Positions 1 through 19,283 of a stretch of DNA of 22,959 bases are shown here, piece after piece. Positions within the stretch are counted from its first letter, which is position 1. Each line of letters starts with the position of its first letter. Both the position numbers and the translations under genes were made by a program. Origin of the DNA: Cyanophora paradoxa CCMP329 (Eukaryota > Plantae > Glaucophyta). The notes beneath the pieces are model-generated. The model did no database searches, was not told the origin of the DNA, and saw nothing but the letters and a program-made list of their open reading frames with translations. The stretch is from NCBI GenBank assembly GCA_004431415.1, contig QPMI01000586.1, forward strand, positions 1 through 22,959. The letters run 5' to 3'.

Positions 1-66
1 TGGAGTTCCGGCGCCCGTGATTGCTAGTGATTTTCTGGTCCCCTCTTCTAGCCCTTCTAGCAAAGA

Positions 67-347
67 ATGCCCGACCCCTCGCCCGACCCGCCGCAGGTGC
101 GAGAGCGCGGGCAGCTCGGACGAGTACTCCGAGCTCACGGATCCCGACCCCGACGAGCCCGGCGACGCCTTCGCGACGGAGAACGAGCGCTTCCTCATGC
201 GCGTCTACGAGGCGCTGCGCGAGGCATCTACTGGGAGGATCCCCGCCTGGGAACCCTGATGAACTTTGCCAAGTCGCCGAGTTCATGTTCGCTATGACCG
301 TGCCCTTCACCCGAGTCGTGCTCTGGGATAGGAACAGGAACTGGTAA
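67..347 (+). CDS. Small acidic hypothetical protein (about 93 aa, reconstructed across frameshifts)
   Basis: ATG at 67 with ATTTTCT 30 nt upstream. Stitched reading: ...SSDEYSELTDPDPDEPGDAFATENERFLMRVYEALR-GIYWEDPRLGTLMNFAK-VAEFMFAMTVPFTRVVLWDRNRNW*, with TAA ending at 347. Confidence 0.5.
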
Positions 348-374
348 AGGCCATTGATAAAACAGTACAGAGCC

Positions 375-747
375 CTACGAGCTAGAGCTGCTATCGCCCG
401 AGTCCAGGCGCCCCTTCTTGGCCTTGGAGCGGCGGAGGCGGGAGACGTACTGCAGGCGCAGGTTGCGCACTAGGAGCTCGCCGGCCGTGGTGCCCGGCAG
501 CCCGGGAACCGAGTCCGTGGGCAGCAGCTGTCCCTCGCGTATCGCCTTGTACGTCTTGCGCTTGTTGAATGCAACCTTCTCCGTATCCTCCGCGACGGGA
601 CTTCCAGCGCCAGCGTGCGCTTGGCCTTCTTGACGGAGACTGCGTTCGCACGCTCCAGCTTCACTCGGGCTCCAGGGGGGTAGGGGCGACTGCGGTTCGC
701 CACCGGGTTCTCAGCGAAGGAAACACGGGGGGAAAGCCGCCGCGCAT
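375..747 (-). CDS. Small basic (Lys/Arg-rich) hypothetical protein, about 125 aa, frameshifted
   Basis: ATG at 747. Reads ...ANRSRPYPPGARVKLERANAVSVKKAKRTLALEVP, then after a frame change DTEKVAFNKRKTYKAIREGQLLPTDSVPGLPGTTAGELLVRNLRLQYVSRLRRSKAKKGRLDSGDSSSSS* (TAG 377-375). Confidence 0.5.
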
Positions 748-763
748 GGTTCGCTCGGTTTAC

Positions 764-1088
764 CTAGCGTTTAGAAAATAGCGCGCGAGCCTCGAGCACC
801 AGGAGACCCGCCACAACCGCTGCGGCGATGACAACGGCCACCTTGAGCCAGTGCCAGAAGCGCTCGGCCCCGTCCGTCAGCGCGCGGCCCGCCTTGCCCG
901 GTGCGGTGAGCGCGGAGCCCAGGCGCCCGCCGCAATGTCGGCCCACGCGCCTCCGTCGCCGCGCAGGACGTTCTCTCGGTTCTTCGTCTCCACCGTGGCG
1001 CCAATCGCCGCGTTGATCTCGCCGAACTGCAGGCGCGGCTGGCCCTTGGGCCGAAGGTCTTCGTGAGCAGCGCATCGAGCCAGCTCAT
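764..1088 (-). CDS. Small membrane protein with C-terminal TM helix (about 108 aa, frameshifted)
   Basis: MSWLDALLTKTFGP...QPRLQFGEINAAIGATVETKNRENVLRG...AERFWHWLKVAVVIAAAVVAGLLVLEARALFSKR*, with a clear hydrophobic helix before the stop. Confidence 0.6.
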
Positions 1089-1126
1089 CCTTGGCTAGCT
1101 TCCAACCGGGGTTTCGAAAAAACTAT

Positions 1127-1600
1127 CTAAATGACCAGGCCGCGCAGGTACCAGACCATCAGGAGCGAGCCGCCCAGCGCCACCAGCAGCGGCAGGTGCC
1201 CGTCCACGGCGCGCCGCATGCGGTTGTCGCACAGCTCCTGGCAGCTCAGCCGGTTGGCCTCGTCGAAGTAGGCGCTCACGGCGTAGGGGCGGCCGGCGGC
1301 GGTGCAGCCCCCGCCCAGGCACGGGTAGGCCTCCGCCTGGCGCCGCGCGGCCAGCGCCGCCGTCGCCGCGTGCGCCGCCTCCTCTGCCCCGGCGCGATCG
1401 CCACGAGGGGCAGCGCCCCCACGCTCCTGCCCTTGCCCGCCCCCTTGATCGTTTTCAGCGACGGCGGCGCGGGATCCGCCGCCCTCACCCTGGGCCCCTC
1501 CGCCGCCGCCCCACCTTAGCCCTCGCCGCCTCGCCGATCTTGCTGCATCGCGAATCCGATTTGAACACGTGCACAGCAGCTTCTCTACCGCGCTCGACAT
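1127..1600 (-). CDS. Hypothetical protein with a Cys cluster and C-terminal TM anchor
   Basis: 157-aa ORF ending YPCLGGGCTAAGRPYAVSAYFDEANRLSCQELCDNRMRRAVDGHLPLLVALGGSLLMVWYLRGLVI*. The frame of the N-terminal half is uncertain. Confidence 0.55.
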   Translation of the reverse strand: MSSAVEKLLCTCSNRIRDAARSARRRGLRWGGGGGAQGEGGGSRAAVAENDQGGGQGQERGGAAPRGDRAGAEEAAHAATAALAARRQAEAYPCLGGGCTAAGRPYAVSAYFDEANRLSCQELCDNRMRRAVDGHLPLLVALGGSLLMVWYLRGLVI

Positions 1601-1694
1601 CTTCGAACGTGTAACGAGAATGAAGAAAATTTAAAAGGGAACGCCACGGACTCGGAACTCGGAAAAGGGGGAGGGGAGAATGAACTTTGAAAAG

Positions 1695-1883
1695 TTAGCG
1701 CCCGGCGGGGCGCATGCCGGCCGCCGCCTGCGAGGCGCAGCCGGGGGCGTAGAGGCTCTTGGCGGCGTAGCCAAAGCCCACGCCGATGACCGCCGAGGCC
1801 GTGGGGGTGCCGCCGAGGAGCCAGGTGAGGGTCGCGGCGAGGGCTCCTAGCGAGTAGTGGGCAGGATAAGCTTCGAAGGCCAT
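1695..1883 (-). CDS. 62-aa hydrophobic small membrane protein
   Basis: Intact ORF MAFEAYPAHYSLGALAATLTWLLGGTPTASAVIGVGFGYAAKSLYAPGC..., with two short Gly/Ala-rich hydrophobic segments and A/T-rich spacers on both sides. Confidence 0.55.
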   Translation of the reverse strand: MAFEAYPAHYSLGALAATLTWLLGGTPTASAVIGVGFGYAAKSLYAPGCASQAAAGMRPAGR

Positions 1884-1928
1884 CGCGGACGAATTGAGGG
1901 AGGGTTGAGAAAAATACCGCCTCGGGCC

Positions 1929-4900
1929 TCAGTGGTGCAGGTGCCGGAAGCGCGCGTTGTCCTCGCCTCCTCGCGCGCCGCCTGCTCCTCCGCCGCGTCG
2001 ATCTTTGCCCGCGAGGCCTCGCGCGCGCCCGCCTTGCGTACGAGGTGGGCACCGGCGCCCGCCGGTAGCTGTAGCCGAGGCCCTTCGCCAGCTCCACGGT
2101 CCCGTCCTCGAACGCCCGCCAGCTCTCCACGGCCTCCGCCGCGCTCATTCCGCTCCGCGCGGAAGCCCGCCTCCAGCTCGGCGCGGAAGGCGGTGGCCTC
2201 CTGCAGGCGCTGGGCCCAGAGGCCTGGCGCCGCTCTCCGCCTCGCGCGCCTGGCGCGCCGCCAGCGCCCGCCGCTCGGCCTCCTGCTGGCCCGAAGCCTG
2301 GATCGCGGTGAGGACGGCGCCGGGCGGGGAGGGGCTGGGGCCGTCGGCGCTCGCGGAGGAGGCCGAGCTCCCGTAGCCGCTCGGCCCGCGCCGCCGTTCG
2401 TCGGGGTACCCTGCCCTTGGATCAGGAGGGGGCGGGGGGAGGGGGGGTACGGGAGGGAAGGCGGGGGTACGCGGGCCGGACTGGCGCGGCAGCATCTCGT
2501 CGATGCGCTGCTGGCCGGGGCGCTGCTGGGGGCCGTGGCGGGGGGCTGGGCGGAGGAAGGCCGGCGCCGAGTTGCGGGTGCGCTTGCCCTTGCCTTGGTG
2601 TGGGCTTGACGAGGAAGGGCCCGACGTCGGGCGCCGGGTCCTTGAACTGGGCGACGGGGATCGCGATCGCCTCCAGCGCCGGCTGGCTCTCGCCGAGGAG
2701 AGCGGGGCCTTGGGGACGATGCCGCGGATGTAGGTCTGCCAGACGCCGCGAGCTTGTAGGAGTAGGGCGGCACAGGAGCCGAAGCCGGCGAGGGTCTCGT
2801 CCAGCCGGCGTTCTCGATGTCGGCGCCGACGGCGGCGGAGGTGTCGGGGCCCTCCGTGCGCGCGATGTACTCGACGATGCCCGCGACGCTCGTCATGTAG
2901 CCCTCCGTGTTCGGGCGGCGACGTAGGTGGTGGGTCGACGGCGCAGTGGCGATGATGAAGCGGGTGAGGGGACAGGAGGCCGTCTCCTGCCAGAAGCCGA
3001 GGCGCTGCGCCCGCAGCCACGCCGGCTCGAAGGCCTGGATGCAGGAGGCCTTGCCGTCGGAGAGCGCGTGGATGATCTTCCACGCGAAGGTGAAGGCCGC
3101 GACCATGAGCGCCGGCAGCTCGTTCTCGCGGATGTCGGAGTGGAGGTAGGTGCGCTTCTTGGCCGGCTTGTGGTCGAGGGGATCAGGACGACGCGGGCGA
3201 AGAACTCGAGCATGCGGTTCTCGAGCTGCGCCGGGGCAAGTGAGAAAGGCGCCGGGGAAGGGAAGGGGGGCAGGGGAACGGGCGCACCTGCGGAAGCTGT
3301 TGCAGACGATGACAAGCACCTTGCGCGTCGCCTTGGTGCGCACATCGTCGCCGCGGACGTTCTTGAAGTTGCGGGAGTAGGCGTCGCCGGAGCGCATCTT
3401 GAGCTCCTCTCCGAGCAGGCCTTAGGGTCGAGGCCCTCCGCCATCACCATGCAGATCGCCTCCTCGCCGCCGTGCTCGAGAAGGCCGAGCCCTTGGAGGG
3501 GCGGTAGACGCAGACGCGGCCCGGCGGCAGGCACTCCGTCATGATCTGCGTCACCATCGACTTGCCTGTGCCCGACTGGCCCTTGATGATGCCGCAGTAC
3601 TGCAGCATGGCGCCCTCGGACGCGGCTCGATCTCCGCGCGCGGCTCCCGGTCGAAGACGGGCTTGTCGCAGAAGTTCCACGGCCGACGAGGTTGAAGGCG
3701 TAGAGGACGGCCGCCGCGTAGCCGAACTCGTCGGCCGTCACGTAGCCGTTGTCCGCCAGGTGCTTGACGACGTTGGGCATGAAGGGGTGCAGCATGCCGT
3801 ACACGGTGGGCCAGTCGCAGGTCTCGGTCGCCTCCTCGATGCCCGCGGGCAGGCGCCCTGGATGTAGCAGGTGTTCATGTAGCCGCGTACCGCTCCCGTG
3901 CCTCCTCGTGCGTCATGACGAGGACGCAGGCGCTGCCCGTGCTGTCCTGCGGCGCCGCACCACGAAATCTGCGCAAGGGGCGTCGGCGGGGTACGGGCGG
4001 GGCGCAGGGGTACGGCGGCGCACGCGTGTCGCAGGCGAAGGCGAAGCCGGGGATGACGGCATCTCGGGGCAGACGTCCTCGAGCTGGAGGGACTCCTCCA
4101 CGAACGTGCGCGTCCGCCCCGAGAGCACCTCCTTCGAGAAGGTGAACTCGAAGGAGCCGGGGTTGGACTCGTAGGTCTTGTGGAAGGTCATCGCCAGCAG
4201 CTGGATGACCTCCTTCATCGTCCGCGCCGGCGTGCCTGTTCGCGCTGACCTTGTCGTACACGAAGAGGTTCGGGAGCTCGACGTAGAAGGTGGGCGGGAG
4301 TTCGGGCCGTAGGGTCTCTGGCGCACGATCCGCTGCGCCGGCAAAGGGGTTAGCGGGGTTCGAACGCGGGAGGGGGCGCACCGGCCGAAGGCGGCTCGGC
4401 CCAGCGCCTTAAGCAGCTGGGCCACGGCCGCCTCCGGCTCTAAGGGGCGGGGCGCGCAGCTAAGGGGGGCGGGGCGCACGTTGTTCTTGACGAAGAGGCG
4501 GAGCGCATCCTGAATGGCCGCCTCCTTCTTGGACTTGTTGTCCTTGCTGTACGTTGTCACGTCGTCGTACTTGACATGTCGATCTCGGGCGCCTCGCGCG
4601 GCTGCACCGCCAGCTCCGCCCGCGCAGCTCCAGCCTGGTGGCGCGCGGCGGCTCGCCGTCGCTCTCCGACGCCTGGCCGTCGTCGTGGTCGCCTCCGCTC
4701 CGCCGCTGATCGCGCAGCAGCTGCCGCTCGCGCTCGCGCCGCTGCTGGGCCCGGCGGGAGAGGCGGCCGGCGCGGGGGCCGGAGGGGGCGGAGGGGCATG
4801 TGGCCGAGGGAGGAGGCGGGCGTGGCGACGGCGTGCCCCGGCGGCGAGGGGATGGGGCGGGCGAGGGGTACCCTGGACGGAGGCGGCGGGCGCTGCGAGG

Positions 4901-5341
4901 GCTGCGAGGGGCGGAAGGGACTGAAGGCCGAGGGGTTGCCGCTCGGGCGCCAGGAGACGTCGGAGGCGGGGCTGGCGGGGGCACGGGGCGGGCGGGCGGC
5001 GGGGGGACGAGGGGCGGCCTGGGGCCGGCGTCGCCGGGCTCGTCGTCCGAGAACTCCTCGATGGGCGGCGGCGGGGCGCCGTCGAGGGAGGGGGAGGGCG
5101 GGAGGGGTAGAACTCGTCGACGGGGGCTCGGGCTCGAAGGTGTCCCCGCCCCCGCCTCCACCGTCGCCGCCAGCTCCGCATCGGGCTCGCCCTCGCGCTC
5201 GCGCTCGCGCTCCAGCTCCATCGCGTACTCCTCCGCCACCTCCAGCTCGCGCGAGGCCTTCGCGTCCGCCGCCGCCGCCAGCGCGGCCTCCATCTCCATC
5301 TCGCGCTCGGCCTCCAGCTCCTCCTCTGTGGGCAGGGTCAT
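1929..5341 (-). CDS. D5-like superfamily 3 helicase/ATPase of NCLDV (phycodnavirus) type; multi-exon, with low-complexity N- and C-terminal extensions
   Basis: Walker A LQYCGIIKGQSGTGKSMVT (GQSGTGKS at 3581-3558), Walker B-like ICMVMAE, motif C VLVIVCN, Arg-finger region FFARVVLIP. The downstream LHSDIRENELPALMVAAF...EPAWLRAQR...ASCPLTRFI resembles my recollection of phycodnavirus D5 ATPase C-termini. Candidate introns: 3226-3287, 3969-4023, 4333-4381, 4440-4479. ATG 5341, TGA 1931-1929, several frameshifts. Confidence 0.8.
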
Positions 5342-5376
5342 TCCTTTGCGCCTCTGGAACGCCCTAGGCTCAGAAA

Positions 5377-7026
5377 TTAGGGGCGGGGAGGGCGCACCGG
5401 CCGCCTTGGGGCCGCCGCCTCCATCTCCTCGCCGAGATCGCGCCGCGCCGCCGGGGCACCCGCCTCCTCCTCCTCGAACCGCAGGTCGATGTAGGCGGCC
5501 TTGCCCTTGCCCTTGCCTTCGCCTGGGCCTGGGCCTGGGCCACGCGCATGGCGCGCGCGAGGCCCTCCGCCGTGATCATGCTGCCGCCGGCCCGGGCGCC
5601 CGAGGCGGAGGCCGTCGCCTCGCCGATCGCCGCCTGGAAGGCCGCGGCCATCGCCTGGCCGGCGCGCGGCAGGCTCCGCGCCCGCTCCAGCTCCTCCTCG
5701 TGAAGTCCAGCGCCCGGGCCGCGGCGGCGGCCTCGGCCTCGCGCTCCGCCTCGGAATCCGAGTCGGAATCCGAGGACTCCGCGGCCGCGAGCATGGGGCG
5801 GGGGCGGGAGGCGGCGGCGGCGGCGGCGGCCGCCTTGTCGAAGACGGGGACGAAGAAGGTGAGGGCGAGGGTGCGCCGCGGCACCACGTACTTCACGGCG
5901 CCGTGGATCATGGGCCGCCCGTGCGAGTCCGGCATCGAGCACCGGCGGATGACCTGCGAGGGGGTTTAAATGGCATCTAAATAGTCTAAATAGCATCTAA
6001 ATAGCATCCAAATAGAAACGGCGCACCTGCACGCGGTCGCCGATGGTGACGCCGGGCACCTCGAACTCAGGAACCAGGTCGAAGGCGCAGATGCCCTGGC
6101 GCCCGTGGCGGTCCCGGCACGTCCGGCAGGCCGCCTCCAGCACGATGCGGATGGCGTAGGCGTCGGTGAGGACGCCGGTGTCCGGCCGCTCGCCCCAGAC
6201 CGCCGAGCTCTCGTGGCGCGTGATGAACGCGCGGCTGTTCCGCATGATGCAGCGCGCCTCGACGCCCATGATGCCTTCGCCAGCCTCTGCGGGCCGGCGG
6301 GGGTCGGCGGGGAGGGGCGGCCGCGGCTGCACGGGCGGCCGGGGGCGCACCTCGGGCGTGTAGGCCGGGTCCGAGCTGAGCACCAGCAGCCAGAGCAGGT
6401 GCGGGGCCGCCTCCGCCATGCGGTTGAAGTAGAACTCCTCCGGGCCGCCAGCAGGCCAATCGTGCGCCACTCGCCCTTGGCGATGTGCCGGGGCACGGCG
6501 CCATGAGCAGCCGCAGGCGCTGCGCCGCGAACAGCCGGCGGCGTCGGAATCGCGCCCGGCTTCGGCTTGCTCGGTGTGTCGAAGTTCTCCTCCGTCATGT
6601 TCAGCGCCGCGTGCATCGCCCGCACGTCCGCGTCTGCGAGCGCGGCGGCGCCTCAGCCGCTGCGAGCCGGCGCGCGAGGGAGAAAGAGGCAGCGAGCACC
6701 TCCGCGAGCCGCAGCCGCGACAGGACGGAGTCGATGGAGAACTGCACCGACGGGCCGGGGGCGCCCTCGAGGTTCAAGGTCCGCGCCGCGGCCAGCTTGC
6801 GCTTGCGCTCGGCCAGCTCGGTCTTGCGCAGCACATCCTTGCTGTTCGGGCTGAACTGCATGCCATCCTCCAGCGCACGCGCCTGCGCCTCCTTCGCCTG
6901 GTCGCTGATACCGGCCTCGAACACCGTCCAATCGACGCCGAAGCTGTCGCCGACGCAGAGAACGTCGTACAGCGTGTTCTTCGCCAGCTTAGCCGGGATC
7001 TCCGGAGGGAGCGCGAGCCGAGACAT
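5377..7026 (-). CDS. Multi-exon hypothetical protein (orphan)
   Basis: MSRLALPPEIPAKLAKNTLYDVLCVGDSFGVDWTVFEAG...EEFYFNRMAEAAPHLLWLLVLSSDPAYTPE...IRIVLEAACRTCRDRHGRQGICAFDLVPEFEVPGVTIGDRVQ|VIRRCSMPDSHGRPMIHGAVKYVVPRRTLALTFFVPVFDK, then an acidic/Ala-rich tail. GTGCGC...GCAG introns are present (e.g. 5954-6026). The stop is uncertain (TAA 5379-5377 or TGA 5372-5370). Confidence 0.65.
5967..6015. repeat. AT-rich 11-nt tandem repeat (TAAATAGCATC, about 4.5 copies) inside an intron
   Basis: taaatggcatc-taaatagtc-taaatagcatc-taaatagcatc-caaatag, within minus-strand intron 5954-6026. Confidence 0.9.
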
Positions 7027-7328
7027 GCTGCTGCCGCCGATGCTGCCGCCGGTGCTGCGCGCGCTCTGCTGGGAGTGCTGCGCGCGCTGCGAAGGTTCTG
7101 GCGCCAAGTTCCCAGCCGATTTGAACGAGCGGCCTGCATTGCATCGCCGGACTGGGCAGTCAAAAAAAAGCGAGAAACCGACCGGGGTTCGAGCCCAAGG
7201 GGGTACGCATTTTGAGGGGGGGGAAGCGGGCTTCAAGTCTGAGTCTTCGCGAGTTGGGGAGGGAACAAGCCAGCGGGGTACGACGTTGAACGGAATCCGT
7301 TGAGACATCGCGGGCAGTAACACTCGCG

Positions 7329-9706
7329 ATGCAGGCGGCGACCTTCCGCTCGTGCGCGAAGCAGCAGCAGCCCGGCGAGCAGGACAGCATAGCCCGCGAT
7401 CTCGGCAGCCTGTCGGCGGAGGAGGCGCTCAACGCGATGACCTGCGATAGCGTGTTCAACTCGGCCGGCGTGCCGCGCTTCGAGCCGTTCGGCGGGCTGA
7501 AGAAGATCCAGAACACGGACGGCCACCCGAAGCGCTTGAAGACCAAGGGCCAGTTCACGCCGGTGAATAAGTTCAACGAGGTTCGCGGTTTCGCCCGCAC
7601 CGCTTCGGCCCCGGCTCACATGCCCGGCTCGCGTGCCCGCGCGCAGATCGTGCCTTACAGCATTCACGAGCTGCCGGAGCATGTGAAGGCGAAGTACGGC
7701 TTCACGCACGGCGATGTGGCGCTGTTGCTGATGTCCGACAATGCGCGGCGGGCTGCTTCAACAGCATCGCGCTCCATCGCGATTTCCATCCGCGCGCGAT
7801 CTTCTCCGGCACTCCGGAGCAGAAGGAGTTCCTCGCGGACCTCAAATCCGGCAGCGGCGGCGCCCACGGGTGAGGGCCCTTCCCTGCGCTCGCGTGCCCG
7901 CGCTTGCTCACGCGCGGGCCGCTGCAGCTCTTGATCGCGCGGGATCAGTGCCTGGCGTCGGTGACGGAGAAGGAGAAGGCCAGCCCGTCCGGCCTCGGCG
8001 TTCGGTGCGATTACGTCATCGTCACCAAGCGCATCAACCCGACGTACGCCAAGAAGTACGACCTCAACTTCGTCTACGTGAAGGAGGGCCGCCGGCCTCG
8101 CAGTACACCGTCACCGTCCAGGCCGGCATCTGCGCCGGCGAGACCATCCAAGGCGCGTACCACGGCGTCGGCACGCTCCCGTCCGGCGGCTTCTTCGACG
8201 TCGTTGATCACATGTTCCTCTCCTGCGCCGATGACATTTACGTGCGCGAGAGCCCGCCCTTTCCCCTTTCCCTGCCCCTGCGCGCGCTAAGGTCGCGTCC
8301 GCAGGTCGGGGAGAACCCGAGCGCGGAGAGCCCGCTGGGCTACGCGTACTGGCTGGTCAGCGTGCAGAAGGTGCTCTCCTGCGCGGCCCTTCTGAAGTAC
8401 GCCAGCGTCTGCGACTCCGGCATGCGGCCCCAGCTCCAGCTTCTCGTGGATCAGGGCCGGAGCGACGAGACCCGCCAGCGCCACCGCGATCTCGCGCGGA
8501 CGGCCGTGCTGAAGCTGGAGGAGGTTCTGCGCGAGGGCCACCCAAACGGGCCGGCCCGCGCCCGTGAGATCCTCTCGGCGGCCATCTCCGTGATCGTCGG
8601 CGAGCTCTCGCACACGGTCCGCCGCCGCCCCGCTTAGCCCGCCTCTCCTCCCTGACCCCGGGCCCTCGGAGCGCAGGAGGAGTCGGACGTTCTCACGCGC
8701 GGGCGGACGAGTTCCAGCGCCAGGCGGAGAAGATCAAGTGCTGGTACGAGAAGGTGAAGAAGCGGAGGAGACGGACCTGCGCGACTGGGGCAGCAAGAGC
8801 GGCGACGCCGAATTCGACCGCGACAAGCTCAAGCGCGTCTTCTTCTGGATGCGCATCTGCGCCAAGCTGGAGGCGCTGATGGACGAGTGGCACATCGAGG
8901 GCGTCCGTCTGGCGAAGGCGATGATCGCCATGGAGTGGGGCCACGGCCACCCGGCGCGCAAGGAGTGCAGCATGCTGGCCAAGGAGATCGGCCGCCGGGG
9001 CCGCTACATCAAGGAGGTGGCCTACGGCATCGAATGTGCGTCCGCCCCGCCTTGGCCTGCGCCCCGCCCTTGGCCTGCGCCCCGCGCTCTCCCCGCTCAC
9101 CCCCTCTCCCGCAGTTACCATCCCGCTCGTCCAATTCTTCCAGCGCGAGTTTGTGCTGATCCAGGCCTCCATCATCAAGATCGGGTCGCTCTCCGCCAAG
9201 GAGGTGGACGAGGCAAGGGACGAGGGCCAGGCGGAGGCGGAGGCGCGCTGGGACGATGCGGCGTTCAGCGCCGTCTGGGGCGTCGGGGACAACGCGCTCT
9301 CGCCCCCCGCCCCGTTCGGCTTCAGCGGGCGGCCCGCGCTGGCGTTCGACGAGCACGGCCTCCCGAGCTGGCGGAGGCGGACGCCGTCGGCTTCAACTGG
9401 GCGACGTTCGAGGCCCGCATCGACGAGAAGGCGAAGGAGGCGCAGATGCGGCTGCTGGAGGAGGGCCTCGTCCCGGCGCCGGTGCCCGCGCCCTTCCCCC
9501 TTCCTCTCCTCCTCGGCCCCTCTCACCGCCTCCTCCAGCCCCCGGCGTCCTCGGCTCCGGCGCCCTTGGCTCCGGCGCCCTCGCCCCCGGCCCTCTGCCC
9601 CACCTACGGAGAGAGGTGCGCCCACGGCGCCGATTGCGCCCTCAACGGCTCCCACCTCCTGCCCGCCAAGAAGGCCCGTGTCCGGACCCTCCCAATAATC
9701 ATATAG
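7329..9706 (+). CDS. Large multi-exon hypothetical protein (orphan)
   Basis: ATG 7329. Coding-like blocks FNSAGVPRFEPFGGLKKIQNTDG, RCDYVIVTKRINPTYAKKYDLNFVYVKEG, YAYWLVSVQKVLSCAALLKY and KLKRVFFWMRICAKLEALMDEWHIEG are separated by introns such as 7581-7646 and 8242-8304. The protein ends with a Pro-rich linker, CPTYGERCAHGADCALNGSH and KKARVR; TAG at 9706. Confidence 0.7.
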
Positions 9707-9727
9707 AGTATTGGAAAGGTCCGGACA

Positions 9728-10383
9728 CTAGAGGAGGGCGTACGACTTAAACTCGCGCAGCGCCGCCTGCTCCTCGCTGAGGTTCTCTGACTTCATTCGA
9801 TCGCTGTAGGGCTCGGGCGGCGTGCCCTCCTTGACGTGCATCCAAAATAGATGTAAGCACTTCCTCATGAGCTTGATGTACCTCTCGTCCCGTCTGACGT
9901 ACCACGTTTGCACGCGCAGAGGAGTGAAGCAAAAAAGTTCGGCCCACTCGCGGCCCGTTATGTCCAGCAGGCCCTGGAGCTGGGGCATGTAATAAGTTGG
10001 GACCTTTTCGTAGAGTTCTTGTTTGTAGGGGCATTTTATTTCAAGTATACGATCGCTTCCAATCAGCCCGTCCGGGCTGCCCGCCAGGAAGGGCAGTTCC
10101 TTATGTTCGTGCAATCCAGTATGTTGCACGTCCACGTTGTTGTTCGACGTTTTGTAGAGAGAGACCGCGAGGGGCTCATAGTCATGCCATAGGTTAGGGC
10201 AGGGTTGTCAAAGTTGTTTTCCTCCGCTATCCCGCTTAGCTCCGCCCACAGGCGGGCCCTGGATTTCCAGGGGTTTATGCCGCACGCAGCCGCAAAATTA
10301 GATGCAGTTAGTTTTTCACGGCGCGCCGCGTGCCACGCTGCGCTCCCCTGTTGCAAAGTCTCGCAATTTGTATCGGTATGCAT
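9728..10383 (-). CDS. YqaJ-like viral recombinase / lambda-exonuclease family PD-(D/E)XK nuclease
   Basis: Canonical motifs QGSAAWHAARREKLTAS, YG...YEPLA, FLAGSPDG, LEIKCP and YYMPQLQGLL. One single-base frameshift near 10180 joins ORFs 10063-10383 and 9728-10135. No introns; visibly lower GC than its left neighbours. Confidence 0.93.
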
Positions 10384-10398
10384 AGCGTAGCCTCGCAG

Positions 10399-10417
10399 TA
10401 GCGTTTAGAATTTCTTG
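10399..10417. promoter_or_regulatory. Putative bidirectional promoter element (TAGCGTTTAGAATTTCTTG)
   Basis: Lies in the 50-nt gap between divergent ATGs 10383 and 10434. AGAA-T-TTCT presents TTCT to both strands. The 12-mer TAGCGTTTAGAA recurs at 765-776 at a similar distance from ATG 747. Confidence 0.5.
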
Positions 10418-10433
10418 ATGTGTGCAATTGCAA

Positions 10434-11128
10434 ATGTCGGATGCAGAGGAAGCGCCCAGGGACGTGATCGCACAGTTCATAGATCAGGTCAAGGACCTTA
10501 GACGCTGGGTGGTAGAGCAGGCCTCGCGACCGAATCGACAGCGCCAACCCTGGCCGGTGCTAGAGCTGGCCCGGGCAGGGTGGCTAGACACGCATTACAA
10601 CTCTGGCGGGGCCCTTTACGTTCGGAGCCACGACGAGGGCAGGATTATCGACGAGTTCAAGCGCATCTGGTTCGCCCTGGGCTCCAAGCTCAGCATACTC
10701 TCGACCCTCCCGGACCACATTCGCATGCAAATCCTCGAGTGGTACGCGAAGGCAAGGGACTCGCAATGGGACGACGTAAATTTGCGCGACCTCTCGCGCT
10801 TGCGCTCGGCTGTGACGGCGTATGTCACAAACTATGATTATCACGTCAAAAAGCCCCAATTCGAAGTTGAGCCAATTCCGATGAATCTGGTACCCCTGGG
10901 ATGGGAAGAGTACCCGAGTACTCGTGGAACAGGGCCTCAACCCCCGCGCCAGGCCCTGCCAGCCCCGCCCGCCCCACCGATAAACGCCCCCGCCCCGCGT
11001 GACGTCAGACGGACATACGCGAATGGGAGGAGTGGAGCAACGACCCGAAGAACTGGCTACCCGGGGAGGCGGAGATGCGGAAGCGCGCGAGGCTGATGCC
11101 CGGCGACAGGTACCCCGACCGCGAGTAG
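10434..11128 (+). CDS. Intron-free hypothetical protein, tandem paralogue A
   Basis: MSDAEEAPRDVIAQFIDQVKDLRRWVVEQ...DEFKRIWFALGSKLSILSTLPDHIRMQILEWYAKARD...LSRLRSAV..., a Pro-rich linker, then after a frameshift near 11015 REWEEWSNDPKNWLPGEAEMRKRARLMPGDRYPDRE* (TAG 11126-11128). Confidence 0.7.
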
Positions 11129-11162
11129 GGGTACAGGTATAAATTCTCACCGAGCCGCGAGC

Positions 11163-11941
11163 ATGGCGCGAACACGCGAGTCCGACGTGCTGTACAACAA
11201 CGGCGACCTGGACGGGGAGATTCGACAGCGGAACGTGGACTTGGAGGATGCGAACGCAGTGCTGGAGGGGAGGCGCACGTCCTCAGGGGCGGCTCGCCGG
11301 CGGAGAACTTCATGGAGCGCGTGCTCTACCTTGTGCGCTGGATTAGAGACGAATTCCACGACGAGCGAGAGCTCCCGGACAGGGAGATGATCAGGGCGCG
11401 GGCTTGATGGGTATGACAGAGAACCCGAGATCGTACCTGAGGCGCGAACGCAGGGATCTGAACGGCGATTGGGCCGACCTGCAAGCGCTGTGGACGGCCT
11501 TTGCGAACCGCAAGAGCCAGATCCTTGCCCTGCCCGCGCAGGTACAGCAGCGTATCATTGATTTCGTAGCCCCCTGGCGCGACGAGTCCCTCCAGCAGCC
11601 ATTCATGCAACCACGCTTCCTCTCCGGGCTCAGGAGCGCGTTCTTCCACTTGGCCGTGAGCAGCGACCGGTATTTCACACCGCAGAGGATCGTTCACGGC
11701 GAATTCGGCATACCCCCGAGTGGCTGAATTTTGCCACCGTACCCCCTTCCCCACCCCGCCTCGAAGGCCCCCCCTCCCCTACCCCGAGCAGCGTGAGTCA
11801 CTCAAGCGTCAGAGGGAGGTACGCGAATGGATGGACGACACAGCCACTGGGTACAGGGCGAGGCCGAATTACGCAAGTTCGGAAGGTTCGGGCAGTAACA
11901 GCGGGGGGTACAGCATTCAGTTAGAGCCTGAGCATCGTTAG
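11163..11941 (+). CDS. Intron-free hypothetical protein, tandem paralogue B (frameshifted)
   Basis: MARTRESDVLYNNGDLDGEIRQ...ENFMERVLYLVRWIRDE...ADLQALWTAFANRKSQILALPAQVQQRIIDFVAPWRD...LSGLRSAF..., a Pro-rich stretch, then QREVREWMDD...EPEHR*. AAATTCT lies 15 nt upstream of the ATG. Confidence 0.65.
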
Positions 11942-12059
11942 AGGCCGGGAGGCCCCCCGAGGGGTACACCGGCTGTTACTCCCCGCGTCGGTTAGTGCTA
12001 GCCCCCCTGTTAGTGCAGCGTGTACCTGATCGCAATATAACACCCAAACCTCCGCGACG

Positions 12060-14690
12060 CGTGACTCATGCAACCTCCGAGGGTTAACAATGCATTGACA
12101 GCGAAGGGGCAAGCTCGAGAGCTCAACGCTTCACAAAGGCCCACGTATATACATGATCACGGTATACGTAGCATGGCGCCAATTGCAAAGTCGACGCCGC
12201 GCGCATATGCGGCATGCCGCATGCGGCATGCGGCGTGCCACGGTGCGGGCCGTGCGGCATGCCATGAATCCCATGATCCGAGATGCGTACTGTAACCTGA
12301 CTCTCTGACTCTCGCATACTCGCATCACGAGTCGCATGTCATGCGCATATGCATGCCCCCCAATTGGGCCCGGCCCGCAAATCCCGCAATAATTTTTTAT
12401 TTAAGTTGCAAGTTGCCGTGGCCAATTGCAAGTTGCAAGGTGAAACCATGAAACTCCATTCAAGATTCAACTTGGCAACTTGATCAAAACTTCTGCAGCT
12501 TCCAATTTTGCAAAGTTCCGCCGATCGCGAGCTCGAGTACCTATATAGCTACATGTGCGGCGCATGCGCATTGTGCGCATGCACTTCCGAAAACTTCCGA
12601 GGCAATGCAGATATATGTGGGTCACGCTGACTCACGCAGACTCACGCAGACTCACGCTGCCTGAGCTCGAGTCACGCATGATCATGATTCATGACACCGT
12701 TGACACGCTTGCTAGCAAGTTTGCAACTTGCAAACTTGCCCTAGGCCTTTAGCGGGAACCTTTGCAATTGGGGTACCGGTATACAGTTTAGAGAGCACCC
12801 GCCGCCGGCCGGACCCCGTATACGTATACGTATAGCCTAGCACCGGGCCATACGGTACATGCATGATGCATGGCCCGGCCCATGAGGGCCGATCGCGATG
12901 ATGAGGGCCATCATGAGGCGCATGATGCATTAGCTAATAAGTGTAGTAAAAAAAAAGTTTCATAACACATGTACATATATATATTTCATGATTTTCACCG
13001 TACGTACACGTGCAGGAAGTTGCCAGGATTCCAGGAACTGGCAGCGGACGTGACCGGGACGTCACGCTGAAAACGGCGAACGTCACGCACATTTGCGGAA
13101 ACAAACCGACTCGGAGGCGCTGAAAGCTCGATCGACTGGCTTCAAGGCCCGACAGCTCGAAAACGGTTGGCTCGAGGCGGTTGGGTTTTCCTGATCATAT
13201 GCATGCTAAATCCCTATTGACGGCGATTCGAATTCGAGATGAAATCGCTGTACCCGCAAAAGGAGTGGCGAATCCGGTCCGGCGATTCCCGCCGCGGCGA
13301 ACTGAAGCGTCGAGCGTTTAATTTGCATATCCGAGTACCGTGTAATTCTTAATTACCGCGCTGACCGTACTACTAGCTAGCTGCGCTACCATATCTTGCA
13401 ATTGATTACTGCGCTCAAAAATTTTATAACGCAGTAATTTGGTAGCGCAGTATTAAAATTACCCCCTTTGCTAACAAATAATGCATTTTCGAGGCCGATC
13501 GATGGAACGCACTTCAACGCAGTAATTTGGTAGCGCACTGCGGCAGTATATATTATAAACTAGTGAAGCGCCCCCTATATGTGCATATGATCAGGTGACT
13601 CTAGCTGTGACTCAGTGAGTCTGTGCCACGGTGAGTCGTCGGTGACTCATCGTCCGATATCCGCCGTGCGCCGCGGTGCGCGGCGGACCGGCGGTCACGG
13701 ATCGGGGACTCACGGTGCGCCGCCGCCGCCGCGGTGTCACGGTGCCACGTGCATGCGCACTGGAAGTCTGGGCCACGCGTGCACGGTACGTTGCGCGTAA
13801 TTTCGCGTAATTTCGCGGCGTAAATATATTAATATTATCCGGCCGCGGATGATATGGCCATCGGATCATGCTGGCAGGCTGGAGTTAACATTGAATCCAC
13901 TGTTATCCACGTGCACATGTATACGTAAAGCTTCGAATTCAAACCTGAATCGGGATTCGGGATTCGGGATTCATGATCAAGAATCGGGAATCGGGATTCC
14001 TGCCAGCCAGTGCCAGGCTAGCCGCTAGCACTACAGTCTACAGCTGGAAATTAGCCTGCTGGAATCATTGAATCCGGCCGCGCGCGGGCCTGCATCATCA
14101 GGCTGCCGGGCTGGATGAGTATTGTGGATTCGCATAGTTTCCATGATCATGACTCAGTGAGGCCGTCGCCGGCCCGTCGACGTCGGCCCGGCGGACTCGG
14201 TCGGAGTCGCAAAACTTGCAAGTTCTACCGTACTAGTACGGTACTACGGTAGTACGTTAACGGTTCGAGACACGGCGTCACACGGACTCACACCGACTCA
14301 CACCGAGTCACACGCCGCGGATATATAATTACGTATACAGTGTCATATGCGCATGCATAGTTTCCGGCGACTATCCAGTCTATCCGATATCGATGATCCG
14401 CCGGATTCCGCCCAGCCGCACCGAGTCTCACTGAGTCAGCCTCTCAGGCATGCGCAGGCTGCGCAGCCTGCGCATGCAGGTGCCAGGCTGCAGGCTGCAG
14501 CTGGCACTGGCTGGCAGAGCCTGGCACTGCGGCAGGCAGTGGCCCAGTGGCATGCAGGCTGGCACTGCCTGGCAGCTGGCCAGCGCCGGCGCCCGGCGCC
14601 GCCGGCCCAGCCTGGCAGCGCCGGGGGCCAGCGGCGCAGCCGCTGAGCCGCGCGCAGCGGCCCCAGGCCCCCAGCGCTAGCGCTACCTAC
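12060..14690. repeat. Non-coding spacer dense in short palindromes and short local duplications
   Basis: Examples: atgcggcatgccgcat, (gactcacgca)x3, tacgtatacgta, (cgggatt)x3, (cgtaatttcg)x2, and many GCATGC/TTGCAA/CTCGAG sites. No credible ORF. Confidence 0.75.
13381..13540. mobile_element. Degenerate MITE-like element with inverted and direct 22-nt repeats
   Basis: AACGCAGTAATTTGGTAGCGCA occurs exactly at 13428-13449 and 13516-13537. An interrupted inverted copy, CTGCGCTACCA...ATTACTGCG, lies at 13381-13413. The interior is AT-rich. Confidence 0.5.
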
Positions 14691-14692
14691 TA

Positions 14693-14908
14693 CTGTAGGA
14701 CGGCTTAAATTGCCGTGGTGAAAAATTGCCGAATTCGCCCAAACCGGAATTGCCGTGGTGATAAATTGCCGAATCCAGACATTCGCTCTATGGGGGCCTC
14801 GGAAACTCCCTACCCCCAGAAACATTGCCGTCCCTTTTTTTTTGCCGAATTCGGCCTCTCGGCAATTAACAGCAAAATAAAACGACGGCTAAAAAAGCCG
14901 TCCTACAG
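14693..14908. mobile_element. MITE (216 bp) with 14-bp TIRs and TA target-site duplication (Tc1/mariner-like)
   Basis: TA|CTGTAGGACGGCTT (14693-14706) ... AAGCCGTCCTACAG|TA (14895-14908). Internal repeats are AATTGCCGTGGTG-AWAAATTGCCGAAT x2, further TTGCCG copies and an inverted CGGCAATT. Confidence 0.85.
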
Positions 14909-15189
14909 TAGGTAGTACTACTAGCCTAGTAGTACCTACTACCTAGCCGCTGAGCGGGCCTTCATTAATTTCCCAGCTGCCGCACTGCGGCATGCATGCG
15001 CAGTGCCGCCAGTGCGCCGGCGCACGCGGCACGCGCAGAATCCGCAGATAGATATCGATATCGATATCGCGGGCGACTCGCCGTGCCGGTGGACACGGTC
15101 AATCCGGGGCCAGGCCCCTGAGGCGAGCATTTCATTTTTGACCTTTAGACCTACTGTCAGCAGCGCAGAGGCGCAGGCGTCAGCATCAG

Positions 15190-15197
<8 letters not shown>

Positions 15198-15275
<78 letters not shown>
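15198..15275. repeat. (CAG)26 microsatellite
   Basis: Perfect 78-nt trinucleotide tract upstream of the RWP-RK gene. Confidence 0.97.
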
Positions 15276-15277
<2 letters not shown>

Positions 15278-15495
15278 CAAAGCAAAAGCCCGCGCGAACT
15301 ACCGAAGTCTCCCGATCTAGGGCCAGCAGGAAATTCGAAATCGCTCGCGGCCGGTGCGCAGTTCACGGTTACGCATCTCCGCGCGGCCGGCCCCGCGCGC
15401 TATCGCTCCGCGCTTCTACGCACGGCGGATCGCGGAGCCTAACTTCAATTTTAAGCTGAAGGGGCATCTTAGAAGTCAGCACGCAGGCCTTTAAT

Positions 15496-15502
15496 TATAT
15501 AA
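15496..15502 (+). promoter_or_regulatory. Putative TATA box
   Basis: TATATAA about 150 nt upstream of ATG 15654 in a GC-rich context. Confidence 0.45.
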
Positions 15503-15653
15503 GCTTACGCATGCGCGTGCCCGGCTGGCAGCGGCGGCTGCCGACTCATTCGAATTCTCCTTTTTGCGCACTCGGCCCGCAGATTCTGAACCGGTATCGC
15601 CACCTGCGTATACGCAGCATTTGCGAGAGATCGCAGCTCGCTTTTTCAGCACG

Positions 15654-18194
15654 ATGCAGGCAGCACATATACACCACGCGGAGGCGACGCTCGGTATTTC
15701 CCTGGACTCCGAGACCCTCTCGCTGTTCGACGTGGAGCCGCTCTCTTTCCTCGCCATGTCCCCGGGGCCCGGCTCCGGCGGCTCCCCGGGCTCCCGGGCG
15801 GCCCCCCGAGCCCGCGCTCCGGCCGGCCCCGCCCGCCCGCCCTCCGGGCACTCCCCCTCCAGCCCCGCCTCCCCGCACGACACCCTCGACCGCTCCCCGG
15901 CCTTCTCCCTGTCGGTCCGCGAGCTCAATTTTCAACGTTTTCCCGCCCCGCCCGATCGCGAGGATTAAATTTCAAATTTCGCCCCGCAGGCGTTCGCCGA
16001 CGAGGAGGACCATGAGCACGCCCGGCAGCAGGAGGCGGCGGCGGCGGCCGTGCCGGCGCCGGCGCCCTTCGCGCAGAACGGCTTCCTCTACTTCGCCGTG
16101 CCGATGCAGGCGGTCCCCACGGCCGTGCCGGGCTTCGGCGCCCGCTCGCAGTCCCTCCCCAGCATGAACGGGGGCGAGCTGCCCGCCAACATTCTCGCCG
16201 GGAAGCGCAAGCAGGAGACCACCGCGGCGGCCCCGGGCCCCGCCAAGCGCCGCAACTCCCTCGAGCCCGCGTGCACGGTGCGCCCCGCGGCCGCCGCCTT
16301 CGATCGCCATCGCGACTCCGATCGATTTACATGAATTGGAAAATTTCAAAATTCCGGCCGCGCCTGGCCATGGCCCGCCTCTGACCGGCATCGCCGCCGC
16401 AGGAGGCGCCGGCGTCGCCGGCGCTGGGCCGCATCGCCCCCGGGAGCCACAGCCTCGTCATGTCCGGCTCTGTCAACGCCGCCTACCTCGAGCGCATCCA
16501 GAAGAACGGTGCGCGAATTTTATCCGCGCAATCCGCCCCGGAGTGCAGGGCTGACGAACCGCCGGCGGGGGGGCGCGCAGGGGCGGAGGGCAAGTTCCTC
16601 CCGCCCTGGCTCATCCGGCCCGGGAGCAATCCGGCGCCCTCGGCGTCGCCCCTCACCACGGACCTCGACACGCTCTACGGCGCCGCCGAGAACCCCGCCC
16701 CGCCGGCCCCCCTCCCCGCCTTCTCCCCCTCCGACTGCAGCTTCGCCACCTTCTCCAAGTGAGCCGCCTCTTTCCCTCGACCTTCGGTCCGCGATCGTTC
16801 GGGCCCGAGCCTCGCGCGCGCGCGCAGGGCCGGCGGCAAGTTCGAGACGGTGACCTTCGCGGAGGCGTTCGGCCCCGGGGCGGCCCGCAGGCCCTCACCG
16901 GCGCCTTCGGCGCGGCCGCCGGCTCGCTGGGCCTGCCGGCGGAGCTCGAGACGGCCTCGGGCTCGTCGGACGGGGAGCCCTCCGAGGATGGCTCGGTCAC
17001 GGCGGCGCCTTCAGCCCGGCGGCTTCCGCGCCGCCACCCTCGCCCTCGACCGCCCCCGTTCCTCCCCGCCGCCCCGCCCCGCCCGGCCCCGGCGCTCGCC
17101 CCGGCCCCCGCGCGCGGGGCCAAGGCCGCGCCGGTGCGGCCGGTGTACAAGGGGGCCCTCCCCTTCGAGCTCGACGAGGGCCTCCTCCGCCGCCTCGCCG
17201 CCCAGCAGGTCCCCCCTCTGATTCGACCCGTCTTAACTGCGCCCGCGCTGACGGGCCGGCCCCTGTCGTGCGCGCAGCGCGTGAAGCTGCAGCAGCAGAT
17301 GGCCGTGGAGCAGGCCCGCGCCGAGGCCACGCCCCGCACGGCCCCCGTGCGCCCCGCCCCGCCCCTCGCGATCGCGCGCGGGCCGACGCCCCCGCGCACG
17401 GGCAGGCGATGCCGCCGTCGGGGTCGAAGGTGACGCGGGAGGAGCTGGTCGCCAACTTCGAGCTCCCGATCCAGGAGGTCGCCAAGCGCCTCGGCGTCTG
17501 CGTCACCGTCCTCAAGAAGATCTGCGCTCCCACGGCATCACCCGCTGGCCCCAGCGCAAGCTCCGCTCCGTCACCCGCTGGACCGAGCAGGCCGACATCG
17601 TCGTCCAGAACCGCGTCCCGGGCTTCGACCACGCCGCCATCGCCCGCGCCGCCGGCCGCCTCCGCGAGACCCGCTCCGTCCTCTACCGCAACCCCGCCGC
17701 CTCCAGTGCGCCCCGCCCGCCCCTTTCATGTTTAGCTCAAGTCCGCCCGAGGCTGACGCGCGCGCAGTCAAGGACGTGACGGGGGCGATCCGGAAGCTGC
17801 TCGTGCAGCCGATCCAGCAGCGCTTGAACGAGATGCGCGCCGCCGCGGCGGCCGGCGGGGCGGCGCGCGACGACTTCGACGGGGAGGAGAGCGAGGCGGA
17901 GGAGAAGTCGGGGGGCGTCCAGATGGACGACATCACAACGTGCGCCCCAGCCACCCCCTCCCCCCTCCGCCGGCGTCCCCGCCCCTGCGGCCGCTGAGAG
18001 CGCCCGCGCGCAGGTACCTCCAGTCGTACCTCGCCGCCGCCTCGACGGGCCCGGCCGCCTCGGGCAAGGCCGGGGCCGCCGCGGCCGCCGCCGGCCTGCC
18101 GCTGGACCTGCCGGCCCCCGACATCTCCGAGCCGGAGGGGATGCACGCCTGCGCTGACCCCCTCGTCATCCAGGGCGCCTACCTCCATCTCTGA
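15654..18194 (+). CDS. RWP-RK domain transcription factor (multi-exon)
   Basis: VTREELVANFELPIQEVAKRLGVCVTVLKKIC(R)SHGITRWPQRKLRSV at about 17430-17572, with RWPQRK at 17543-17560 and one base missing near 17525. Exon 1 (15654-15914) splices in frame to 15990, further GT...GCAG introns follow, and TGA ends at 18194. Confidence 0.9.
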
Positions 18195-19283
18195 GCCCCG
18201 CCCCCGGGCCCCGTCCCGGCGCCGGCGCCGGTGCCGCGATCGACGCCACGCCCTTTCGAATCCTTGAGCCCCTAGCCTCTGCAGCCTAACCGCCTTCGTC
18301 GCGATCGCGAGTTCTCAGTGATCATGATCTCCGGATCCTCCGAATTTCTTTATTACCGAACTCGTTTGAAATTCGCTCTTAGTTGGTCTTAGCTTGCAGT
18401 CCGAGCCGCCACGCTCGGCCGCGCCTGTGCAGTCAGTCGCGCTGCAGGCTTGCAGCGCGCCCGCCTTCTGTAGTTTTTATCGCCTCCGTACACGTTTCAT
18501 GCGCATACCCCGCCACGCTAGAGCAGGTGTATACAGGTAGTGATTAATTTATCGTTGTCGGATCGGAGCCGTCAACGTCGACGTCGTTTCAAGAGTTTAT
18601 ATCTATGTAATTATGCATTGATTCAAACGTGACTTGTAAATTGGTATTTATTTGCAGCTTCGAGCCGCAAGTCCCAGCTGATATGCTGGCTTTTTTATGT
18701 ACTCACGGTATGTATTGATGTTAGCTACAGCTCAAGCGCTTCTGTACATGTAAGCCACGTGCGCGTACGTAAACGCGCATGAGGTCCCTATATAGCTAAC
18801 TCTAACAGTCGTCGAGTCGTGTGCTTCTCGACGGCTAGGTCCGAATGCAGTTAGAATAAAACTTTGAAATTTTCCATCATCATGGCATGATCATTGAATC
18901 CAGCTATACTATGATAGATCTAGACCTGACTGAGTAGACTTGACCACACGCGTTTCAGTTTACTTTGCTTGATCGTGCGGATGATTAGGAAGCATCCTTT
19001 AGCCTAGAATGTCTTGTCTCAGAGTGTGTCATACCGTTCGCATACGTATACCGTTGTTCGCATACCTTGCCGAAATCCTGCAATAAAATCTGTATTACAA
19101 AAGAAGCCTGGCGGCAAGCTTGCAATTGCCTGGGGGATCCGGAAGGGGTCGCTGGGTGGTGAGGCGAGAGGCCAGGAGGTGCATGGGCGCGGCGGCCGTC
19201 GGGGCGGGTGAGGTGGCCATGGGGAGGCAGGGTAAGAGGCGGCGCGAGGTCAGTGACCGCTGGAGGCCCAGGCCGGGCTCGCC

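Follow-up and report, generated by a model that had tools for sequence, protein, structure and literature searches.

A high-copy, intron-rich, virus-like element with a sharp right end in the genome of the alga Cyanophora paradoxa

Endogenous Polinton-like viruses (PLVs) of protists are described as integrated, multi-copy, compact and mosaic elements with a helicase-type replication gene, and Cyanophora paradoxa is one of their hosts (PMC10120064; PMC12220804). Table S1 of PMC10120064 gives 366 PLV-type capsid genes for this alga. Table S6 of PMC12220804 gives 156 PLV-type elements which, by a reading of its columns, hold 139 A32 ATPases, 85 rve integrases and no tyrosine recombinase. Adintovirus-like proteins have also been reported in C. 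paradoxa (PMC8502044). The survey in PMC10120064 started from capsid profiles, called genes without introns, and states that endogenous viruses of such a kind have no introns. The element described here occupies bases 1-12,151 of a 22,959-nucleotide stretch of C. paradoxa CCMP329 DNA (the window; contig QPMI01000586.1 of assembly GCA_004431415.1, which is rich in indels) and runs off the left edge. It is likewise integrated, multi-copy, compact and mosaic, has a putative helicase-type replication gene, and resides in the same host. It differs from the endogenous PLVs in having 14 spliceosomal introns, a host-like G+C content and a putative helicase unmatched by Pfam D5_N or DUF5906; a capsid gene, an A32 ATPase, an rve integrase and a terminal inverted repeat were not seen in the part of the element within the window. 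The element is real, recently amplified, intron-rich and virus-like, and its proteins are almost wholly unassignable. No description of it was found in the literature searched, and supplementary tables of earlier surveys may list it.

Other described systems resemble the element in part. The Nucleocytoviricota-like PLVs and the Mriyaviricetes, as presented in 10.64898/2026.06.19.733378, 10.1101/2024.02.29.582850 and 10.1101/2022.07.28.501842, share with it the absence of an own polymerase in view, an SF3 helicase (putative in the element) situated behind an uncharacterised N-terminal domain, and a PD-(D/E)XK nuclease; a figure legend in these papers names YqaJ for haptophyte PLV-related contigs. 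Mriyaviruses are described there without integration genes, whereas the element is integrated many times and has introns, and no HUH endonuclease, VLTF2/3, RuvC or Mriya48 was detected in bases 1-12,151. Its integration at many sites counts against a place among the Mriyaviricetes. The punuivirus of Chlamydomonas (10.64898/2026.10.09.758095) is reported to have host-type GT-AG introns in 61 of 506 genes, beside intronless ones, as in the element, which in contrast is small, has dozens of copies and a sharp end, and shows no giant-virus core genes. Introns in integrated Polinton-type elements are also known from the introner-bearing eupolintoviral elements of dinoflagellates, where, according to PMC12166617, most are mobile introners acquired by single copies that had already integrated. 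The introns of the present element, unlike those, do not resemble one another, are of ordinary host type, are common to the copies and lie in coding sequence. The capsid-less Polintons described in PMC4405056 are, like the element, large integrated DNA elements, some with a divergent D5-like helicase; no pPolB or rve integrase was seen in the part of the element within the window.

Contig depth and gene models on 50 contigs put the copy number in the dozens, with about 30-40 near-identical copies of the window arm and more of the left 3 kb. The six short-read runs used are X1, X2, X3, X7, X15 and X17, and P-numbers (P0002, P0008 etc.) denote EukProt gene models. Depth ratios are per-contig figures, raw for G+C, relative to the mean of single-copy flank contigs. 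The long contigs on genes G and J have depths of 152.5 and 198.2 in X1 (flank 3.8-7.6; ratio 27-35) and of 2015 and 2485 in X2 (flank 46-74; ratio 34-42). Contigs near position 400, in the left 3 kb, reach 57 times (X1) and 75 times (X2) the flank depth. Among the gene models of C. paradoxa, 35 on 34 contigs belong to gene G, while models of J are found on 26 contigs and of A on 21. The gene order is conserved: a G model lies within three gene numbers on 18 of the 26 J contigs, and G or J lies near gene A on 13 of the 21 contigs with an A model. At least half of the sequence words of 3000-12999 are present in 14 of the 23 listed runs, all from one organism.

The depth drops from hundreds or thousands to the single-copy level past about 12,160, and the shared repeat sequence ends with ...CCCACGTATATA at 12,151. 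In each of X1, X2 and X3 at least three contigs depart behind 12,151 and at least three behind 12,152, with a mutual agreement of only 54-63%; in X7 at least two depart behind 12,151 and at least one behind 12,153. A preliminary description of this DNA, made from the sequence, had placed an abrupt end at 12,050 against a 3.7-kb spacer. The end is indeed sharp, but it is situated about 100 nucleotides further rightward, and the spacer to the next host gene measures about 3.5 kb. With one end seen, the TATATA at the element edge is compatible either with a target or with the terminus of the element. A single-copy contig matches the window without difference over 12,124-12,450 in X1 and X7 and over 12,124-12,349 in X2 and X3; the junction is present unaltered in four short-read runs of at most three samples. 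This contig contains 28 repeat letters, fewer than the 31 set as the bar for calling a bridge. That the element is mobile, high in copy number and sharply bounded on the right is well supported. Exact DNA patterns were used to look for its left part among contigs from metagenomes, viruses and prokaryotes, with no match in any of the three.

Genes G (1929-7026, minus strand, about 1,500 amino acids) and J (7329-9706, plus strand, about 660 amino acids in the window copy) contain eight and six GT-AG introns, respectively, delineated from their ends after mapping P0002 block by block onto G and gene models onto J. The 14 introns have ends like those of the host and are about 55-150 nucleotides long; one of the donors requires a base absent from the assembly. 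The host genes right of 15.6 kb have short introns starting with GTGCGC or GTGAG and ending with GCAG. For C. paradoxa as a whole, PMC6704402 gives 9.2 introns per gene with a mean length of 86 bp, and a mean intergenic distance of 770 bp.

The element is transcribed and spliced. Runs X15 and X17, like the other runs with the element not on record as RNA, are regarded as RNA-type by guess, plus one skipped intron: an X17 contig lacks a 70-nucleotide intron of G (2411-2480) and links 2481 directly with 2410. Among the matches listed, contigs of about 1.6 kb in both runs contain 8676-9035, the J exon flanked by introns 4 and 5, and X15 pieces end at 6699, 3292 and 3956, at or near introns 1, 7 and 6 of G. 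DNA contigs read through those same introns. A further X15 contig extends to 7139, upstream of the start of G. The introns are common to all copies and were therefore gained before the latest burst of copying, which means that the element stayed mobile with introns. Some RNA-type contigs cross gene borders, namely X17 1349-1838 over D and E and X15 1774-2148 over E and the end of G, representing either overlapping 3' ends or joint transcripts. At 3514-3568, a contig of a diverged subfamily (X1 depth 26.7) has 115 letters where the window has 53. The diverged protein models have no insertion there, and the extra letters are possibly a 62-nucleotide intron of one subfamily only.

The copies are mosaic. 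Over the first 335 residues P0013 and P0015 share 96% identity with P0002, compared with 62-63% before the ATPase core and 77% within it. In 12 of the 35 G models the first part is unrelated sequence, with the change exactly at the X1 loose end 3051; none of the contigs of these 12 has a J model, and three have A nearby. There is a second element type which shares the left arm and is devoid of J, and this fits the higher depth of the left part. The unrelated part of this type beyond 3051 resembles the antisense of another gene (P0022, P0029, P0068). Gene C is replaced by other sequence in some copies, as seen from a joint 781-1118 in X2 and from loose ends at 781 in X15 and X17, and gene K has several sequence variants among the copies. 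Six of the 11 listed variant sites of K are third positions, all six in its N-terminal half; the list being cut short, they are not taken as evidence of purifying selection. PLVs are described as commonly exchanging their replication module (10.64898/2026.06.19.733378).

Gene G appears to consist of an N-terminal domain of no known family, a low-complexity linker, a divergent D5-type SF3 helicase and a helical tail. The D5-type helicase, already proposed in the preliminary description, is a weak assignment that nevertheless stands after controls. Among the 11 genes G alone has a P-loop, which aligns with D5-type helicases. A Walker A motif is present in G, and 14 of 19 models give a sub-threshold match to AAA_22. 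The sole tblastn match of G in 50,697 phage records is the D5-type primase-helicase of Leopard phage (E 10; hhalign 89%). This protein, having been chosen by the query, was left out of the D5 test profile, which was made of ten phage D5-type helicases picked by hand from the 25 listed for the Leopard phage protein. The profile scores 10.8 bits with P0002 and 11.5 bits with P0008 over about 200 residues, a stretch that includes Walker A and the helices after the core. The highest score among 400 shuffles was 1.2 bits, reversed sequences scored below zero, and J and A gave nothing. Alignment of the profile with G by hhalign gave 89%. In the alignment with the phage D5 profile, GQSGTGKS is followed by VLVIVCNSFP and FFARVVLIP, the register of Walker B being ambiguous. 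This fits the order expected of a D5-type SF3 helicase, with Walker A, B, B', motif C and the arginine finger within about 130 residues and a helical post-core segment behind them.

The relatives found for the helicase come from the element family itself. The 553-residue helicase region has 18 matches among 1.84 billion representatives, at 55-97% identity. Ten of these are named Cyanophora models and the other eight belong to the same family, judging by sequence. When pieces of the proteins of three element genes were searched, EukProt models alone were obtained (35 for G, 23 for J and 6 for A), and the cluster members listed in two look-ups were C. paradoxa accessions in 23 of 23 and 32 of 32 cases. 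Two EukProt models show 100% identity to the window across the query, and on these grounds the host is taken to be C. paradoxa, a glaucophyte. Of the three findings that the preliminary description had named beforehand as speaking against it, none turned up as far as they could be checked: neither single-copy orthologues in related algae nor outside relatives were found in the protein searches, and the junction is present without differences, as noted above. Structure prediction was of little help. The AlphaFold model of the N-terminal domain of G has a confidence score (pLDDT) of 36.7, too low for use, and that of P0008 with 11 paralogues reaches 34.5, and a fold search on it returned noise. 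The ESM Atlas gave nothing usable for G 1-335 or J, which bears on neither novelty nor absence, and sequence searches of the PDB with G and J gave nothing significant.

Gene K (9728-10383, minus strand, intronless) is solidly predicted to encode a YqaJ / lambda-type exonuclease, in agreement with the original proposal. Its two halves match PF09588 with 41.6 and 30.9 bits (cut-off 22), phrog_434 is matched with E 6e-20, and PDB entry 3syy with E 4e-7, with SPDG, E-x-K-C-P (EIKCP) and Y-x-x-Q-x-Q aligned. A PDB sequence search with the N-terminal half of YqaJ gave no matches. Phage relatives amount to 94 records with less than 40% identity. A scan for related loci based on YqaJ yielded one tailed phage (L001) and two bacterial loci (L002, L003; of these L003 was examined), which were judged chance matches.

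Gene J reaches about 800 amino acids in other copies, where it has a further C-terminal part. Most J models run 85-180 residues past the point where the window copy meets K, and X15 has a loose end at 9678. Residues 27-56 of G and 578-607 of J form a shared 30-residue segment (53% identical, E 2e-6), which at the DNA level is an 87-nucleotide inverted repeat with 76% identity (6862-6948 / 9380-9466). At 9590-9660, before the variable C-terminus, J has a Cys/His cluster C-x6-C-x5-C-x5-H that is similar to a small zinc finger and has no profile match. Family, ESM Atlas and PDB searches gave no marks of a transposase in J. No relative of J, L or A was found in viral contigs.

We give even chances to the interpretation that the element is the right part of an intron-bearing Polinton-like provirus, with the genes for capsid, packaging and integrase expected to the left of the window. 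Membership in the PLVs is not shown; by analogy, the element would work like an integrated element of PLV grade. It shares with PLVs the integration at many sites and a probable replication gene (a D5-type helicase in which no primase domain was detected). PLVs measure 15-30 kb, and the element is at least 12.15 kb long with one sharp end. The packing of the genes and the run of small hydrophobic genes also count toward a provirus.

In such a provirus, G and J would be expressed by the host nuclear RNA polymerase and the spliceosome from the divergent promoter between them. The SF3 helicase G would unwind the element so that a polymerase of the host could copy it (the arm seen encodes none), and YqaJ would resect ends and promote the recombination that gives mosaic copies. 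New copies would then be inserted by an integrase, TATATA being either the target sequence or the terminus of the element itself; the integrating enzyme might be encoded in the unseen left part, or be J. The intronless membrane microproteins A, C, D and E could be late, particle-associated proteins.

Several observations weigh against this interpretation. Eight introns in G and six in J are at odds with PLVs, which are described as intronless in PMC10120064, although in a latent algal giant virus introns are reported to be enriched in latency genes (10.64898/2026.10.09.758095). Among the matches listed, the splicing itself was seen as a join in at least one of the 14 introns, with at least five more fitting at contig edges. 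The G+C content of G and J (69-73%, compared with 75-77% in host genes and 55% in K) is host-like, not foreign. No capsid, A32 ATPase, protease, pPolB, rve integrase or tyrosine recombinase gene was found in the 12.15 kb seen, and profile searches found no minor capsid protein among the 11 genes. The preliminary description had read the locus as a virus or virus-derived mobile element in an alga. Its mobility and its algal host are borne out by the copies, the sharp end and the flanks, but its viral nature is not, with no capsid, ATPase, polymerase or integrase in view. None of the D5 models of Pfam, NCBIfam and PHROGs matches G, nor does any D5_N or primase domain model of Pfam or NCBIfam. 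The match of P0013 and P0015 to the D5 profile is confined to Walker A (2.1 and 0.7 bits, the latter within the range of the shuffles). PLV helicases usually have some outside relatives, and none outside the element family was found among the 1.84 billion representatives. Finally, none of the six C. paradoxa capsid contigs named in Table S2 of PMC10120064 is among the 50 element contigs, a weak point as these are six of 366.

The element might instead be a giant DNA transposon of viral descent that has no capsid, an explanation that we regard as possible and clearly less probable than the provirus. G, J (possibly end-binding or integrating) and YqaJ would then copy and insert the element inside the nucleus, copies devoid of J would be non-autonomous, and the membrane microproteins would be cargo or relics. 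The host-like G+C content and the 14 host-type introns point to a long nuclear residence, no morphogenesis gene lies within 12 kb, and the viral and metagenomic collections searched hold no relative of G, J, L or A. The existence of a second element type without J fits as well, and loss of the capsid gene is described for some polintoviruses (PMC4405056). However, nothing marks J as a transposase, and a PLV size of 15-30 kb, as given in PMC10120064, leaves room on the left for a capsid module. The intronless small membrane-protein genes form a tight run which is covered by RNA-type contigs. Such runs are more typical of particle-forming viruses.

It is also possible, but not probable, that the element represents an undescribed class of large, intron-rich, self-copying DNA elements that have abandoned the life of a virus or whose capsid is undetectable by profiles. 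In such an element a helicase without recognisable relatives would be accompanied by J, in charge of end-processing or integration at TATATA, and by YqaJ as the recombination nuclease. It would have been amplified recently to dozens of copies while depending fully on the spliceosome of its glaucophyte host.

It is unlikely that the locus derives from an endogenous giant virus (Nucleocytoviricota), a piece of which was copied passively through segmental duplication or as the cargo of another element. Giant-virus insertions are reported in C. paradoxa (PMC12344493) and can carry introns, according to 10.64898/2026.10.09.758095, and D5 and YqaJ are common in Nucleocytoviricota (10.1101/2024.02.29.582850). 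A relation to this phylum or its smaller relatives had been suggested from these two genes, and they are indeed present, in the case of D5 as a weakly assigned gene; a specific link did not emerge, the helicase having no detectable outside relative. The sharpness of the end, within 2 nucleotides, the unlike flanks and the tens of near-identical copies with module swaps are better explained by an element that has ends of its own. There is no giant-virus core gene besides the D5-like helicase and no close giant-virus relative, and host genes resume 3.5 kb rightward.

Even less credible is a cluster of host genes in a repeated (e.g. subtelomeric) segment, joined by a YqaJ acquired through horizontal transfer and by an unrelated P-loop ATPase. 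It would account for the host-like introns and G+C content and for the weak helicase call, and YqaJ-like genes occur in cellular genomes too. The genes are, however, separated by 15-97 nucleotides compared with a host mean of 770, protein searches found no homologue in any other eukaryote, and the boundary is sharp to one base with several flanks. A chimeric assembly, in which viral DNA was misjoined to host DNA, would suit the many indel errors of the window and the short repeat part of the junction contig, but is very improbable because that contig is identical to the window at single-copy depth in X1, X7, X2 and X3 and overlapping contigs continue into the element, which also has host-type introns and half or more of whose words recur in the 14 runs of one organism mentioned above.

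Elements of this kind, with a replication arm full of host-type introns and proteins that match almost nothing, are likely to be missed by intron-blind surveys. A single strain makes it possible to test whether a Polinton-sized element can stay mobile or form particles once it depends on the spliceosome, and whether intron gain is confined to early or replication genes. C. paradoxa is available in axenic culture, and methylation data exist (PMC12344493). If the element has no capsid, it is a candidate for a new transposon class with an integrase of an unknown kind. Elements of an undescribed class, if real, would escape surveys that start from capsids and disregard introns, and could explain part of the unclassified repeats of protists; this repeat fraction is given as 11.5% of the C. 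paradoxa genome in PMC6704402.

Bases 1-12,151 contain 11 genes (A, B, C, D, E, G, J, K, L, M and N), counted after allowing for introns and assembly indels. The count and the close spacing agree with the preliminary description, the intergenic gaps being about 15-97 nucleotides with the exception of the 302-nucleotide divergent promoter region of G and J (7027-7328); its picture of compactness does not extend to the intron-rich G and J themselves, and it had overlooked the introns, the high copy number and the mosaic nature of the copies. The gaps M/N and B/C hinge on the frame ending chosen. Nine of the genes, all except G and K, have no family match over the cut-off in Pfam, PHROGs and NCBIfam, as had been noted, and a search of 1-15,700 against Rfam gave no matches.

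The window has many frame breaks, which are mostly assembly errors. Of 33 frame changes relative to P0002, 31 are base shortfalls in the window, as are all five relative to P0075. Extra bases in short-read contigs account for 11 of 12 and 3 of 3 indels among the matches listed, and substitutions are rare next to gaps in these contigs: an X1 contig on 7216-9614 differs from the window by 12 gaps and no substitutions.

At the left edge lies the 3' part of gene A (1-347, plus strand). P0045 maps to 116-344, and models of A, found on 21 contigs as noted above, give a length of about 190 amino acids in other copies, where the protein has an N-terminal hydrophobic helix. In the fused models P0037 and P0055, A is immediately preceded by another small gene, left of the window, which has a hydrophobic stretch. 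The next four genes are read from the minus strand. Gene B (375-748) is intronless and encodes a small basic protein, recognised from its frames and from the same peptide in the fused models P0017 and P0024. Genes C (764-1088, about 105 amino acids) and D (1127-1600, about 157 amino acids) each have a predicted C-terminal membrane helix, and gene E (1695-1883) is an open reading frame for a 62-residue hydrophobic microprotein whose peptide recurs in P0016, P0017, P0022 and P0061. The exact reading frame of D is a EukProt model, the only one of ten window frames found by exact look-up. Small membrane proteins had been predicted here, and hydrophobic 19-residue stretches are clear in C (2.56), A (2.15) and D (1.84); the stretch in E is weaker (1.27).

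To the right of K, three genes are read from the plus strand: L (10434-11128, about 233 amino acids, intronless), to which P0110 maps at 10476-11125; the small gene M, recognised from its frames (11163 to about 11407, with its end at 11390 or 11407); and N, an open reading frame of 106 amino acids (11407-11727). The remaining 11728-12151 is the non-coding right end, delimited by the depth drop and the loose ends. It contains a 17-nucleotide inverted repeat (11889-11905 / 11969-11985), and an 11-mer situated just upstream of the start of J (7312-7322) recurs at 11890-11900 as an arm of this repeat. The motif GGGGTAC occurs 14 times in the element, between 2403 and 11967, in G introns, the divergent promoter (two sites), the end of L and the terminal region, and twice in the host part. 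It is expected 1.9 times in the whole window, an excess that is overstated as the motif was chosen by eye; GGGGTAC is possibly a binding site of an element protein.

The host genes right of 15.6 kb include an RWP-RK factor (15654-18200, PF02042 over the cut-off) and a HAT/TPR-repeat protein (20586-22959). Within the host spacer, 14676-14925 is a 250-nucleotide element resembling a miniature inverted-repeat transposable element, with 44-nucleotide inverted arms that are 75% identical and a high contig depth. It is followed by a CAG run at about 15,195-15,275.

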